Sequence record: MK327940.1
Origin: Escherichia phage vB_EcoM_G29
Reading direction: 5' to 3' (one strand)
DNA: 64,000 nt
Shown here: one piece after another, positions 4,651 through 8,101 of the stretch
Position numbering within the stretch: the stretch's first letter is position 1
How the letters are laid out: every line of letters begins with the position of its first letter
Notes under the pieces: model-generated
The model's database searches: none
The model's input: the letters and a program-made list of their open reading frames with translations, nothing else
Told to the model about the DNA's origin: nothing
Position numbers and translations under genes: made by a program

Positions 4651-4752
4651 GGGAATTCTAGGGCAGGGATGGGCAATTAAAGGATAGGATAATATATTAT
4701 AAAGGGTATAAACTAAATGATGCCTAGAGAGGTCCAGAAAGGCCTAGATACC

Positions 4753-4777
4753 AAAAAGCCCTATCATTTAGATAGGG
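4753..4777 (-). terminator. Rho-independent terminator
   Basis: Hairpin ccctatc/gataggg followed by U-run on minus strand, downstream of the 4786..5187 gene. Confidence 0.6.
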
Positions 4778-4785
4778 ATTTAAAA

Positions 4786-5187
4786 TTATTTACCTAGTTT
4801 ACTTATTATAGCTTCTGCAGCAGCTTTTAGCTTAGATGCAGTGTTAATACGATTTTTAATTTCAGTATACGCATCGCCAAGAACATCAAGGCTATCAGAA
4901 TAAACACTTACACTATTGCGTTCGCTATTTGAAATAGAACCTTTAGTTTTGCGGTCAAAATCGGTGTACACGTCTTGAAGATCGCGGGCTGCCTTCTTTG
5001 CATCATCCAATGCATCAAGAGCTTTATTCAAAGCATTAACGTATTTTTTAGTGTCGAACATATTCTTAGAAATTTTAACAGGTGCGCGTTCAGGAGTAGC
5101 TAACACAGATTTAGGAACCTGAGCGCCAGATGCCAATTTCTTAGAAATTTTGAAAAATGCTTTATTGAATTTATTTTCTTGACTCAT
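4786..5187 (-). CDS. hypothetical protein
   Basis: 133 aa track ORF; start overlaps stop of the small upstream ORF (ATGA); Rho-independent terminator downstream. Confidence 0.6.
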   Translation of the reverse strand: MSQENKFNKAFFKISKKLASGAQVPKSVLATPERAPVKISKNMFDTKKYVNALNKALDALDDAKKAARDLQDVYTDFDRKTKGSISNSERNSVSVYSDSLDVLGDAYTEIKNRINTASKLKAAAEAIISKLGK

Positions 5188-5348
5188 TGTAAAAGAACAT
5201 TATCGATGTTGTACATTTCAATAGCTTTAGCTTTCCACTTAAGAAAATCGCCGCGGTCTTTTGGGTCCAATTGGAAGAATACTTTAGTAAGATCTGCTTC
5301 AGATGGTAATTTTGCTGCTTCGGTTAAAAATTCGGCATAGGTTTTCAT
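5184..5348 (-). CDS. small protein with capsid-targeting-sequence-like N-terminus (internal-protein-like)
   Basis: Hand-translated 54 aa MKTYAEFLTEAAKLPSEADLTKVFFQLDPKDRGDFLKWKAKAIEMYNIDNVLLQ; below the 60-aa track cutoff; N-terminus matches the T4 internal-protein motif MKTYQEFIAE. Confidence 0.5.
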   Translation of the reverse strand: MKTYAEFLTEAAKLPSEADLTKVFFQLDPKDRGDFLKWKAKAIEMYNIDNVLLQ

Positions 5349-5438
5349 TTAAAATCCTTGAAATAATTTATCGGTTGGTTATTAATTATTTATTACTTTG
5401 TTACTATCCGTAACAGCGTTATCCGAGTGATTCAAACT

Positions 5439-5465
5439 AAAAAGCCCCAACCTTTCGGTCGGGGC
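5439..5465 (-). terminator. Rho-independent terminator (GC hairpin plus U-run on minus strand)
   Basis: gccccaacctttcggtcggggc hairpin preceded on the plus strand by an A-run; same 31-bp element recurs at 5996-6026. Confidence 0.7.
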
Positions 5466-5473
5466 TAAGAATG

Positions 5474-5947
5474 TCATTTGATTTGTTTAGCAGACCAAAT
5501 GCGGTCTTTAATAATTTTTTGGATGTCTTCAACATACTCAAGAGAGTGAACATGTGGATTATCTTTGAAACTATAAGCACGGGCTAACTTTTGGCCTTCG
5601 GTTTTGATTACTAAAAGCTCTTTAAGGATAGCTTCATATTTAGCGATAATTCCTTTAACGATATTTTTTTCTTGTGCCGCTTTAGGATCTGCTTTAGGAG
5701 CAGGTTTACCCGAAGCCTTTGCAAAAGCAGCGCCAGTAGCAACTAAACTTTTCCAGGCCATACTAACTGCATTTCCCGTAAATCCTTCCGCTTTCATGTC
5801 GCGTGCAAACTGGAATCGCGATTCATCAGAAGCATCTTTATAGGAATATTTACCCGCGGCAATGGCAGCTTTTGCAACAGCTTGAATTTCGGTGCTAGAT
5901 GCTTCATTTAACACCGCTTCATTTAAAAATTGAGTATATGATTTCAT
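5474..5947 (-). CDS. internal head protein-like (capsid-targeting-sequence N-terminus)
   Basis: Start moved to ATG 5947 (MKSYTQFLNEAV...); TATAAATA late promoter at 5986-5993 and terminator at 5996-6022 lie inside the longer track ORF. Confidence 0.65.
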   Translation of the reverse strand: MKSYTQFLNEAVLNEASSTEIQAVAKAAIAAGKYSYKDASDESRFQFARDMKAEGFTGNAVSMAWKSLVATGAAFAKASGKPAPKADPKAAQEKNIVKGIIAKYEAILKELLVIKTEGQKLARAYSFKDNPHVHSLEYVEDIQKIIKDRIWSAKQIK

Positions 5948-5985
5948 CTTATTTCCTGTTTTAATTTGTAGATTTAATATACTAA

Positions 5986-5993
5986 TATTTATA
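5986..5993 (-). promoter_or_regulatory. T4 late promoter upstream of the internal-protein-like gene
   Basis: Plus-strand tatttata equals minus-strand TATAAATA, about 40 nt upstream of ATG 5947. Confidence 0.7.
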
Positions 5994-5995
5994 CC

Positions 5996-6022
5996 AAAAA
6001 GCCCCAACCTTTCGGTCGGGGC
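5996..6022 (-). terminator. Rho-independent terminator, second copy of the same element
   Basis: Identical hairpin and A-run; sits between the stable-RNA/tRNA region and the late promoter of the internal-protein gene. Confidence 0.7.
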
Positions 6023-6039
6023 TAAGCCTTGCGGCAACC

Positions 6040-6330
6040 TTGTCGGGGTTCCACCTGCTAAGGCAAGTGTTTGTACGAAACGCCGGGATTCGAACCCGGT
6101 TATTAAGTAGTTGACGCTACTCAATATTTTAAAAGGCCATATCTCGACCATATCCGAACGTTCCGTCAAAAACGCTACTCGGCTTACGGCAAAGATATTT
6201 CCTCGAATCGATAATTCGGTGCGCCGTTTCTGCTGTGATAGTAAAGAGCCAGAACACAGTAAAACTGTGGGAGGAAACTATACTCCAGGGAACATCAGTC
6301 CGACGACTTACCGGTAGCGACCCGGTTTCT
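6040..6330 (-). ncRNA. candidate small stable RNA(s), by analogy to T4 species 1/2 (rnaC/rnaD)
   Basis: Non-coding gap downstream of the tRNA cluster on the same strand; contains a tRNA-like T-arm (ccgggattcgaacccgg) but no complete cloverleaf. Confidence 0.25.
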
Positions 6331-6680
6331 TAATATTCTTTTAAAGAATCAATATATTCACGGCGTTTACGCCACAAATCAATTGCTTCATACGCGGATT
6401 CAGCATTTCGAATTAGCCGGCATTTATGTAAAGACTTATGATTTTGATATTGTGTAGATAACGGAATTGTATCTAAAAGGTCTTTACGATCAAAATATTC
6501 GTAACCATCTAAACCAAATGAACGATTTTTGAGAAATTGCCAATGACCATATTCGTTTTCGACATAAACATAATCTGCATGCTGATAAAGCAAATTAATT
6601 ACACGTTCAGAAATAACAGTATCATTATGATTAAAATAGAATGTTAAATCATGAACTACTAAATAAACATTACCTTTCAT
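6330..6680 (-). CDS. hypothetical protein
   Basis: 116 aa track ORF with GAGGAAA ribosome-binding site, immediately downstream of tRNA-Arg. Confidence 0.55.
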   Translation of the reverse strand: MKGNVYLVVHDLTFYFNHNDTVISERVINLLYQHADYVYVENEYGHWQFLKNRSFGLDGYEYFDRKDLLDTIPLSTQYQNHKSLHKCRLIRNAESAYEAIDLWRKRREYIDSLKEY

Positions 6681-6698: not shown

Positions 6699-6774
6699 TG
6701 GTCGAGGCAGTAGGGATCGAACCTACGACCTAGGACTTAGAAGGTCCTTGCTCTTCCTTCTGAGCTATGCCCCG
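6699..6774 (-). tRNA. tRNA-Arg (anticodon UCU)
   Basis: Cloverleaf folded by hand; anticodon loop cuUCUaa; T-loop TTCGATC; encoded CCA. Confidence 0.85.
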
Positions 6775-6778
6775 TAAT

Positions 6779-6854
6779 TGGGGTGACCGATGGGAGTCGA
6801 ACCCATGACTACGAGAATCACAATCTCGAGTTCTACCAACTGAACTACGGCCAC
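6779..6854 (-). tRNA. tRNA-His (anticodon GUG)
   Basis: Hand fold; anticodon stem cgaga/tctcg, loop uuGUGau; discriminator C73; no encoded G-1. Confidence 0.75.
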
Positions 6855-6968
6855 ATTAATACCTACTCCAACAATCAAGATGTCTTCACACGAAATTAAG
6901 AGAAGAGTGATCAGTTCAACCCCTATAATCGCGTCAAGTAGATATTAATGTGACAGTTGTCACAAATT

Positions 6969-7043
6969 TGGCGGACGTGATAGGATTCGAACCTATAACC
7001 AATCGCTTAACAGGCGATCGCTCTGCCATTGAGCTACACATCC
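6969..7043 (-). tRNA. tRNA-Asn (anticodon GUU)
   Basis: Hand fold; anticodon stem atcgc/gcgat, loop cuGUUaa; encoded CCA. Confidence 0.8.
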
Positions 7044-7047
7044 AAAT

Positions 7048-7134
7048 TGGTGGGGAGTGGTGGAGTCGAACCACCCGAGTCGCAATGACAATGGATTTAC
7101 AGTCCACACCGCTACCTCTACGGGATAACTCCCC
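7048..7134 (-). tRNA. tRNA-Tyr (anticodon GUA), long variable arm
   Basis: Hand fold; 87 nt; anticodon loop cuGUAaa; encoded CCA. Confidence 0.75.
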
Positions 7135-7143
7135 AAATTAATT

Positions 7144-7218
7144 TGGTGGCCCTGGGTGGAATTGAACCACCATCTGGCGATTATGAGTCGCTTGCTTGAA
7201 CCTTCCAGCTACAGGGCC
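7144..7218 (-). tRNA. tRNA with CAU anticodon (elongator Met or lysidine-modified Ile)
   Basis: Hand fold; anticodon loop cuCAUaa; T-stem ggtgg/ccacc; position matches the T4 tRNA-Ile slot. Confidence 0.75.
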
Positions 7219-7219
7219 T

Positions 7220-7295
7220 TGGTGCTGATTGACGGAATCGAACCGCCGACCTTCTCATTACAAGTGAGTTGCTCTACCTACTGAGCTAAATCAGC
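7220..7295 (-). tRNA. tRNA-Thr (anticodon UGU)
   Basis: Hand fold; anticodon loop cuUGUaa; encoded CCA. Confidence 0.85.
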
Positions 7296-7300
7296 AAAAC

Positions 7301-7390
7301 TGGCGGAGGCGATAGGATTTGAACCTATGAGTCGCCGGAGCGACTGCCGGTTTTCAAGACCGGTGCATTAAACCACTCTGCCACGCCTCC
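7301..7390 (-). tRNA. tRNA-Ser (anticodon UGA), long variable arm
   Basis: Hand fold; 90 nt; anticodon stem ccggt/accgg, loop cuUGAaa. Confidence 0.85.
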
Positions 7391-7392
7391 AG

Positions 7393-7466
7393 TCTCCGTG
7401 GCAGGATTTGAACCTACGACATTCTGCTCCCAAAGCAGACGCTCTACCAAACTGAGCTACACGGAG
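7393..7466 (-). tRNA. tRNA-Pro (anticodon UGG), CCA not encoded
   Basis: Hand fold; anticodon loop uuUGGga; 3' end abuts the tRNA-Ser 5' end, as in the T4 Pro-Ser dimeric precursor. Confidence 0.85.
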
Positions 7467-7476
7467 TAAATTAAAT

Positions 7477-7550
<74 letters not shown>

Positions 7551-7555
7551 AAATT

Positions 7556-7642
7556 TGGTGCGAGAAGTGGGACTCGAACCCACAAGGAAATCATTCCGCA
7601 GCATTTTAAGTGCTGTGCCTTTACCAATTTGGCCATTCTCGC
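7556..7642 (-). tRNA. tRNA-Leu (anticodon UAA), long variable arm
   Basis: Hand fold; anticodon stem cagca/tgctg, loop cuUAAaa. Confidence 0.85.
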
Positions 7643-7643
7643 G

Positions 7644-7716
7644 CTGGGAATAAAGGACTCGAACCTTTGCATCCTGGAATCAAAATCCAGTGCCTTACCA
7701 ACTTGGCTAATTCCCA
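7644..7716 (-). tRNA. tRNA-Gln (anticodon UUG), CCA not encoded
   Basis: Hand fold; anticodon stem ctgga/tccag, loop uuUUGau; one nucleotide from the tRNA-Leu 5' end (Gln-Leu dimer). Confidence 0.85.
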
Positions 7717-7813
7717 ATTATTAACAAAGGCTCTTAAGCAAGAACCCTTGATGATAGAGGGTATTAATCAGTGCGATATGAGTTAATAATAACAAATAAT
7801 TCTTAAAGCATAT

Positions 7814-8101
7814 TTACCATTTATAATAATACATATTTACGATGCATTCAAGACCCAAAGGATTCTTGAAAATATCATATTCAAGAGGACCTTTTTCTGT
7901 TTCAATAAAGAAATCAAAATTTACTGTATTAAATTTACGTTCTTCCTTCACTAATTTAACTTGAGAAGATGAACGGTCAATGTAAACCTTTTCAACTTCA
8001 AAACATGTTAAAATGCCATAATCATCAATCAAAGCTTTAGCCGCGTCTTGATCATATTTATATCCATTTTCAATGGATGATACTTTCGCATAAAGAATCA
8101 T
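7814..8101 (-). CDS. hypothetical protein
   Basis: 95 aa track ORF in the operon upstream of the tRNA cluster. Confidence 0.55.
   Translation of the reverse strand: MILYAKVSSIENGYKYDQDAAKALIDDYGILTCFEVEKVYIDRSSSQVKLVKEERKFNTVNFDFFIETEKGPLEYDIFKNPLGLECIVNMYYYKW

Follow-up and report, generated by a model that had tools for sequence, protein, structure and literature searches.

Orthologues of the T4 stable RNAs rnaD and rnaC at the end of the tRNA operon of Escherichia phage vB_EcoM_G29: covarying folds and tRNA-like ends

Layout of the rnaD-rnaC locus

The window analysed here is the whole 64,000-nt stretch of Escherichia phage vB_EcoM_G29 (MK327940.1), a T4-like (Tequatrovirus) genome. On its minus strand, 11 tRNA genes (6699-7716) are followed by an ORF of 116 aa, by a stretch of about 290 nt and by a terminator, which agrees with the position downstream of the tRNA cluster described in the first-pass annotation. 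The same annotation regarded the stretch between the terminator and the 116-aa gene as apparently non-coding, and no convincing gene was indeed found there; only three ORFs cross it, one of 68 aa on the plus strand, one of 42 aa on the minus strand, and one of 231 aa that is a spurious extension of the downstream gene from a TTG start. The stretch had been suspected to hold the equivalent, or a variant, of two T4 stable RNAs. This was confirmed: the locus encodes orthologues of T4 rnaD (species 2 RNA) and rnaC (species 1 RNA), and positions 6074-6334 of the minus strand are collinear, end to end, with T4 rnaD followed by rnaC. The nucleotide alignment to the two T4 genes, which had been proposed as a check, revealed homology along the whole locus, with 137 of 139 positions identical in rnaC. 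The wording "variant" was also apt, as the middle of rnaD represents an allele other than that of T4, namely that of phage T2 (99.1% identity). The reference loci used for the alignment were those of T4 (NC_000866; rnaD 71053-71171, rnaC 70908-71046), RB27 and GiZh, all of them collinear with the window between the rnaD start and the terminator.

The species 1 and species 2 stable RNAs have been known in phage T4 since the 1970s, and the feature is an already known one, a T4-like genome carrying the stable RNAs of T2 and T4. The T2 tRNA region with the genes of species I and II and two extra ORFs has been described (PMC2330249); in T4, RNAC was detected by Northern blot and both RNAs are stable species (PMC9697503). 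The locus of the window is 100% identical to that of Escherichia phage vB_EcoM_G4500. A query of 346 nt covering the locus matched 812 phage records (best E = 4e-177), 679 of which cover at least 80% of the query, and the names rnaC and rnaD are present among the matched records that annotate the region. The fold energy of the whole locus was clearly lower than that of shuffled sequences (z = -4.94). The coordinates of the features are collected in Table 1.

Table 1. Features of the rnaD-rnaC locus and of the tRNA operon in the window
Feature	Coordinates	Strand	Remarks
rnaD (species 2 RNA) orthologue, T2-type allele	6218..6334	-	about 117 nt; alignment to T4, RB27, X03016
rnaD 5' hairpin ACCGG-GUCGCUA-CCGGU	6310..6326	-	5-bp stem, 7-nt loop
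rnaD basal stem, 5' strand GUCGUCG	6301..6307	-	predicted to pair with 6219-6226
rnaD basal stem, 3' strand CGGCGCAC, one bulged C	6219..6226	-	energy prediction
rnaD apical hairpin tip CACAGU-UUU-ACUGUG	6255..6269	-	hypervariable, T2-type
rnaD/rnaC spacer GAAUUA	6212..6217	-	6 nt, AU-rich, as are the leaders before rnaC in other genera
rnaC (species 1 RNA) orthologue	6074..6211	-	138 nt, NC_000866 convention; 137/139 identical to T4
rnaC, X03016 convention	6075-6210	-	136 nt, tRNA positions 1-73
rnaC P1 acceptor-like stem, 5' strand CGAUUCG	6204..6210	-	pairs with 6076-6082 (CGUUUCG)
rnaC P1, 3' strand	6076..6082	-	followed by U (6075, discriminator position), then ACA
rnaC P3, long irregular arm	6141..6196	-	about 21 bp; 17/21 pairs compensatory
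rnaC P3 apical loop UUGACG	6164..6169	-	exactly complementary to the P4 loop
rnaC P4 hairpin	6101..6126	-	10 bp, 6-nt loop CGUCAA; 7/10 stem pairs compensatory
rnaC P4 loop CGUCAA	6111-6116	-	other putative kissing partner
rnaC T arm CCGGG-UUCGAAU-CCCGG	6083..6099	-	2/5 pairs compensatory
3' trailer, rnaC to terminator	6024..6073	-	almost the same as in T4
Intrinsic terminator of the tRNA operon	6000..6023	-	10-bp stem, GAAA loop, U run; matches the X03016 terminator after species 1 RNA
Middle promoter of the tRNA operon	7786..7812	-	MotA box TATGCTT 7806-7812, -10 TATTAT 7786-7791
Late-promoter motif TATAAATA	8055..8062	-	within a trna.2-like ORF, where T4 has PL2 (X03016)

Transcription of the tRNA operon and neighbouring features

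The sequence of the middle promoter in the window is exactly that of T4 PM2, and its position, annotated in X03016, is kept as well; the late-promoter motif PL2 is likewise preserved in both respects. According to PMC2330249, which cites Broida and Abelson, the tRNAs and the two stable RNAs all derive from a single transcript of about 1.75 kb that extends over the complete cluster and terminates behind species I RNA; RNAC and RNAD have been classed as late RNAs (PMC9697503). In the window, rnaD and rnaC would constitute the last part of such a polycistronic tRNA-operon transcript, which would start at the conserved middle promoter upstream of tRNA-Gln, possibly at a late promoter too, and end at the terminator at 6000-6023. 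The PL2-like motif is a possible source of the late rnaC and rnaD transcripts.

The first-pass annotation had called this terminator a repeated one, and an identical copy of the hairpin is in fact present at 5443-5466. The repetition results from two phrog_2280 paralogues that stand in tandem on the minus strand (4786-6023), each preceded by the same 24-nt terminator hairpin. The first paralogue is intact (5474-5947, 157 aa) and begins after a second copy of TATAAATA (5986-5993), located directly past the terminator; the second is split into two ORFs (5184-5348 and 4786-5187) overlapping by 4 nt. Further upstream, a 114-nt spacer between tRNA-Asn and tRNA-His (6855-6968, minus strand) contains the 16-nt palindrome TGTGACAACTGTCACA (6949-6964). 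The tRNA-His gene is absent from the annotation of the T4, RB27 and T2 loci compared (T2 without the start of the cluster), and therefore this gene and its spacer look like an insertion into the cluster.

rnaD: conserved base and variable tip

The 5' boundary of rnaD was placed by homology only and lies directly at the stop codon (6330-6332) of the 116-aa ORF. In comparison with T4, about 48 nt at the start and 25 nt at the end are identical and the centre differs, which gives 99 identical positions in a 125-column alignment of 117 nt from the window with 119 nt from T4. The allele of the window was found at full length and at least 95% identity in 151 of 522 matching records, phage T2 included (99.1%). 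Besides carrying this other central hairpin, rnaD of the window differs from that of T4 in its gene neighbourhood and in its 3' end. It is not preceded by a tRNA, since the 116-aa ORF (6330-6680) lies between tRNA-Arg and rnaD, whereas in T4 and RB27 tRNA-Arg abuts rnaD directly, an order in which 3' processing of the tRNA would generate the rnaD 5' end; this is a trait of the arrangement and not of the RNA itself. The same ORF occupies the same slot in phage T2 (T2_136) and Mosigvirus LF82-3 and is absent in T4 and RB27. Its product has no Pfam match and was assigned by PHROGs to phrog_3355, for which no function is given.

The comparison of 13 distinct rnaD sequences resulted in a fold consisting of a 5' hairpin followed by a long rod-like hairpin, with compensatory changes in 10 of 33 pairs. 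The 5' hairpin corresponds to the second stem-loop of the first-pass annotation (accggtagcgacccggt, found at 6310-6326, one base away from where it had been placed), and its closing A-U pair is replaced by G-C in 3 of the 13 sequences. The base of the rod is near-invariant and is therefore predicted by energy only, not by covariation. The apical part occurs as three unrelated sequence types (T4, window/T2 and Dhakavirus CLBP2), each of which forms a hairpin. Judged by fold energy, rnaD alone was no better than shuffled sequences (z = -0.43); its support comes from homology and covariation.

The ...CACCA end of rnaD in T4, together with the presence of tRNA-Trp in the same slot in other genera, had prompted the idea that rnaD could be a decayed tRNA. 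This candidate identity was rejected: the local alignment of rnaD to the tRNAs found in its slot elsewhere was no better than that of shuffled sequences. The terminal CCA is not conserved either, the RNA ending in CACCA in T4, in CACCG in the window and in CACAG in Mosigvirus.

When phage BW1 was evolved on the semi-permissive host ECOR34, all three populations were reported to share one SNP in rnaD (PMC12685909). According to our reading of the coordinates given there (164080-164336), it lies about 73 nt from the rnaD start, within the hypervariable apical hairpin. The shared SNP may also be a polymorphism that was already present in the starting stock. The same work places rnaC upstream of rnaD; the actual order of transcription, in T4 as well as in the window, is rnaD and then rnaC.

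Fold of rnaC and its loop-loop contact

The rnaC of the window reached 148.6 bits with the covariance model built for this RNA (E = 4e-35), and the segment folds at -50.2 kcal/mol (z = -4.46), none of 200 shuffles being as good. With T4 rnaC (X03016 4741-4877) it shares its place between rnaD and the operon terminator as well as the predicted fold. The differences between the two copies, one A fewer in a single-stranded run of A and one U-to-C substitution turning a G.U pair into G-C, are not substantial.

The consensus of rnaC is a four-helix junction, in which P1, P2, P3, an A-rich joining strand, P4 and a T arm abutting P1 follow one another. P1 comprises seven positions, including two U.U mismatches; A-U is replaced by G-C at position 3:70, and in Yersinia phage TG1 both mismatches are converted, to U-A and C-G. 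P2 is a short, invariant helix. The long P3 arm carries a conserved bulge of 3-4 nt beneath its apical hairpin, the joining strand is conserved, and the motifs GAGGA and GGCCUU are invariant. The T arm is the strong tRNA-like arm noticed in the first-pass annotation: ccgggattcgaacccgg, situated at 6083-6099 (again with a shift of one base), reads on the minus strand as a canonical T arm.

The fold of rnaC is supported by covariation. RNAalifold applied to eight sequences found compensatory changes in 22 of 45 pairs. Among 18 sequences, 91.4% of the cells were paired, compared with 38-48% when the partners were slid, 29 of 52 pairs were compensatory, and none of 500 shuffles reached any of five measures; the alignment was fitted to the model, which biases these pair counts somewhat toward the structure, the loop-loop helix described below lying outside the model.

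This additional helix joins the apical loop of P3 with the loop of P4. It has 6 bp, is paired in 100% of the cases (18/18 sequences), and two of its six pairs covary. Both loops are invariant save in two lineages, and in each of them the two loops changed jointly: in TG1, UUGAUG is matched by CAUCAA (C-G to U-A), and in three Marfavirus-type sequences UUGGCG is matched by CGCCAA (A-U to G-C). We read this pairing as a putative kissing interaction closing the body of rnaC, for which the bulge in P3 could supply the necessary bend. Such an architecture may be undescribed for rnaC, the structural papers of 1975-1985 left aside.

tRNA-like ends and placement of rnaC

The ends of rnaC resemble those of a tRNA. 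As in a canonical tRNA (RF00005), a 7-bp terminal stem is stacked on a 5-bp T stem with the loop UUCGAAU, a discriminator base follows, and the whole forms a four-helix junction; the acceptor stem (P1) and the T arm with the T-loop consensus both show compensatory changes. The anticodon arm (5 bp, 7-nt loop) and the D arm, however, are absent from the covariation-supported fold, their place being taken by helices of about 21 and 10 bp with paired loops, and the acceptor stem contains the two U.U mismatches. The first-pass annotation could not fold either region into a full tRNA, and the searches agree with this. The Rfam tRNA model stayed below its gathering threshold of 29 bits, with no tRNA match in 6040-6330 even at E up to 10, and the best match of the clan, which was also the only Rfam match in this interval at that limit, was tRNA-Sec with 16.8 bits (E = 3). 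The Rfam scan suggested earlier as a means of identification gave no family match for either RNA, because no Rfam family covers rnaC or rnaD.

The boundaries of rnaC are of tRNA type as well. In X03016, the record from the laboratory that sequenced the RNAs, species 1 (4741-4877, 137 nt) begins at the first P1 base and ends one base beyond the last P1 pair, which corresponds to tRNA positions 1 to 73 (C1 to U73), and the same convention lets tRNA-Ser and tRNA-Ile, both of them CCA-less, end at the discriminator base. U73 is followed by NCA in 20 of 20 rnaC homologues; the window encodes UACA, not UCCA, and the Marfavirus type has a true CCA. The mature species 1 RNA presumably measures 140 nt, which corresponds to 137 nt plus CCA. 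This length and the boundary in X03016 together suggest that CCA is added to rnaC.

The placement and spacing of rnaC inside tRNA clusters are also those of a tRNA. In Karamvirus, Gelderlandvirus, Erwinia phage COW86c and Citrobacter phage Ursula, a tRNA-Trp ending in CCA is followed by an AU-rich spacer of 5 nt and then by rnaC. A tRNA-Gly begins 6-11 nt past rnaC in Karamvirus, Gelderlandvirus and COW86c, and in Tegunavirus TG1 tRNA-Trp lies 8 nt past it.

Such ends raise the question of whether rnaC could be a chargeable tRNA-like RNA, to which CCA is added and which is aminoacylated, the amino acid then being used outside decoding, as with the tRNA-like domain of tmRNA. The 7-bp acceptor stem, the canonical T loop, the discriminator U with its conserved NCA tail, the UCCA encoded in the Marfavirus type, and the gene end at position 73 in X03016, as for CCA-less tRNAs, would all suit such an RNA. 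Nevertheless, no obvious aminoacylation identity element was recognised in the acceptor stem (neither G3.U70 nor G-1, nor any further acceptor identity set), this stem is weakened by its two conserved U.U mismatches, and most lineages encode ACA, not CCA. Moreover, ARAGORN found no tmRNA, no tag reading frame is present, and P3 varies too much for a coding function. Charging of rnaC is thus considered very unlikely.

Annotation of the two RNAs in sequence records

A tRNA-Lys(UUU) of 94 nt was called by ARAGORN on the minus strand at 6073-6166. Its acceptor pairing, which engages the internal CGGAACG, is not conserved, and the call was rejected. It is an artefact, because ARAGORN is silent on T4 rnaC, from which a single substitution and one A within a run distinguish the window copy, and is inconsistent among the homologues: no call was made in rnaC of T4, TG1, Melville, Marfa and Ursula, and a tRNA-Phe was called in COW86c. 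The GenBank record of G4500 carries the same tRNA-Lys call, and errors of this kind stand in MK327945 (tRNA-Lys), MK373779 (tRNA-OTHER) and OK210076 (tRNA-Phe). Many other records have hypothetical proteins annotated across rnaC and rnaD. In the window, ARAGORN reported no tmRNA, and the internal region of rnaC is not conserved as a coding sequence.

These annotations, the tRNA-Lys call and the overlapping ORFs of 42-68 aa would be explained if the two elements were decayed tRNA pseudogenes or small protein genes, as many GenBank records have it. The inconsistency of the ARAGORN calls and the failure of the Rfam tRNA model speak against this explanation, and so does the fact that the acceptor pairing chosen by ARAGORN is unconserved while the true P1 covaries. 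Furthermore, substitutions are compensatory in the RNA helices and not codon-patterned, and stable RNA species were detected in T4 (PMC9697503). This makes the pseudogene or protein-gene explanation hardly credible. Most GenBank records leave these RNAs unannotated or present them as hypothetical proteins or false tRNAs; as Rfam has no family for them, a covariance model of the kind used here would correct hundreds of records.

Distribution of rnaC and rnaD

The BLAST search with the rnaC segment returned 748 records, of which 683 are at least 95% identical and 65 share 60-90% identity. Divergent copies collected from GenBank and IMG/VR were used to build the covariance model, which yielded 20 distinct homologues. 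They span nine named T4-like genera and unclassified relatives, among them Tequatrovirus, Karamvirus, Winklervirus, Tegunavirus, Gelderlandvirus, Kanagawavirus, Moonvirus (which we take to be the genus of Citrobacter phage Moon) and Marfavirus, together with the unclassified phages Citrobacter Ursula, Escherichia EcS1 and Erwinia COW86c. Records of Mosigvirus and Dhakavirus with the full rnaD-rnaC locus were recognised by sequence-motif match only, not by the covariance model. Two motif scans of IMG/VR gave mostly chance matches or members of an unrelated GC-rich gene family, and 14 real homologues in total were retained by the covariance model. When 185,579 bacterial and archaeal genomes were scanned with a loose motif, at least 120 matches were obtained, and none among the matches listed was a real homologue according to nhmmer.

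Two of the more distant copies are accompanied by further elements. In Erwinia phage Virsaitis27 (L006, 1425-1500), an unannotated tRNA-like element, GGGAG...CUCCCACCA, is located directly upstream of rnaC. The rnaC of this phage is the sole copy with a degenerate T loop (GGUGC-AUCCC) and also the sole one in which the invariant GGCC is changed to CGCC; the joint changes fit either a contact between the T loop and GG or the decay of this copy. In Klebsiella phage Marfa (L216, 1435-1500), tRNA-Met and rnaC are separated by an element of about 60 nt, the ends of which form a 7-bp stem, GGGGUGG/CCCACCCC, with an A after it. This element may represent a further small RNA of the tRNA operon. The record of Marfa carries a hypothetical protein annotated over rnaC.

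The two RNAs occur independently of each other. rnaC without rnaD was found in all more distant genera, and rnaD without rnaC in Dhakavirus CLBP2, Gaprivervirus EAWsc9 and a related IMG/VR contig. In CLBP2 (L225, about 1005-1035), an exact deletion of rnaC has fused the 3' end of rnaD to the 3' trailer of rnaC. In the Gaprivervirus EAWsc9 type (L217, L224), rnaC is replaced by two similar tandem hairpins, GAGCGGGCGGUGCGCCCGGUAGUAUG and GAGCGGAUGGUGCAUCCGGUACUAUG, the stems of which differ by compensatory changes. The exact loss of rnaC in a viable phage means that rnaC is not essential.

This distribution also bears on whether the two elements act in cis only. In such a case, rnaC would be a dummy tRNA and rnaD a structured spacer, which guide or pace the processing of the tRNA precursor or shield its 3' end, and the excised RNAs would be functionless by-products. 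Both elements always belong to tRNA clusters, within them or at their end, and are spaced like tRNAs, rnaC has ends of tRNA type, and a trans function of these RNAs is not known (PMC3014915). However, the most strikingly constrained parts of rnaC are those that a tRNA lacks (the complementary P3 and P4 loops, P4, GAGGA and GGCCUU), and recognition by RNase P would need none of them. CLBP2 lost rnaC exactly, and in the part of its locus that was compared rnaD, the 3' trailer and a terminator-like hairpin stay in place. In addition, in T4 and in the window rnaC is located downstream of every tRNA and therefore cannot help their 5' processing. A role confined to cis is, in our opinion, distinctly unlikely.

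Proposed role of the two RNAs

Homology, synteny, a covarying fold, tRNA-like placement and boundaries, and the independent presence and absence of the two RNAs were observed in this study. The reading we prefer, and hold to be probable, is that rnaD and rnaC end the tRNA-operon transcript, that rnaC is a tRNA-matured, non-decoding mimic acting in trans, and that rnaD is a separate module. The acceptor-like stem and the T arm lead to the proposal that rnaC is excised by the tRNA maturation enzymes. The 7-bp acceptor-like stem would be stacked on the canonical T arm, the 5' end would be cut by RNase P, and the 3' trailer would be removed, with trimming to the discriminator U and probable CCA addition. 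The pairing of UUGACG with CGUCAA would lock the body of rnaC into a compact, nuclease-resistant shape devoid of an anticodon. The RNA could then offer its acceptor/T-arm face to a tRNA-binding protein, as a decoy or a cofactor, without any codon reading. From the tRNA-like architecture we infer the processing enzymes and CCA addition, and likewise any trans function of rnaC, which would be exerted through the acceptor/T-arm surface toward such a protein. rnaD would constitute the separate module, made up of a small 5' hairpin and a long rod-like hairpin with an invariant base and a hypervariable tip. To our knowledge, no binding partner of rnaC has been reported.

Non-decoding tRNA mimics include the bacterial Y-RNA-like YrlA RNAs and the tRNA-like RNAs of murine gammaherpesvirus 68. 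In common with these RNAs and with the tRNA-like domain of tmRNA, rnaC appears to combine an acceptor/T-arm module with a non-tRNA body, is presumably processed by tRNA enzymes and would not take part in decoding. Unlike tmRNA, rnaC has no tag ORF and no tmRNA-type pseudoknots. YrlA, unlike rnaC, carries its tRNA-like part internally and builds the Ro-binding stem from its ends, and the Rfam YrlA model gave no match to rnaC. The resemblance may indicate a possible working mode and does not imply family membership.

A more specific possibility is that the two RNAs serve host range or counter-defence, rnaC being an anticodon-less decoy for host enzymes that target tRNA acceptors and the tip of rnaD setting the specificity. 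On the side of rnaD, the three unrelated tip alleles on an invariant base and the shared SNP of the BW1 populations (PMC12685909) favour this idea, which is put forward tentatively and must be regarded as unlikely. If the decoy role of rnaC were true, this locked RNA would display nothing but the acceptor/T-arm face of a tRNA, and host enzymes that act against tRNA acceptor ends or modify them during infection would be titrated away or misdirected by it.

Reviews and recent omics studies state that the function of both RNAs is still not known about 50 years on (PMC3014915, PMC9697503), and no paper assigning a function to rnaC or rnaD was found in the literature searched here. Summarizing, the function of the species 1 and species 2 RNAs is among the oldest open questions of T4 biology, for which the covarying fold, the 6-bp loop-loop contact, the tRNA-type ends, the conservation across genera and the existence of natural phages that lack one of the two RNAs provide experimental handles.
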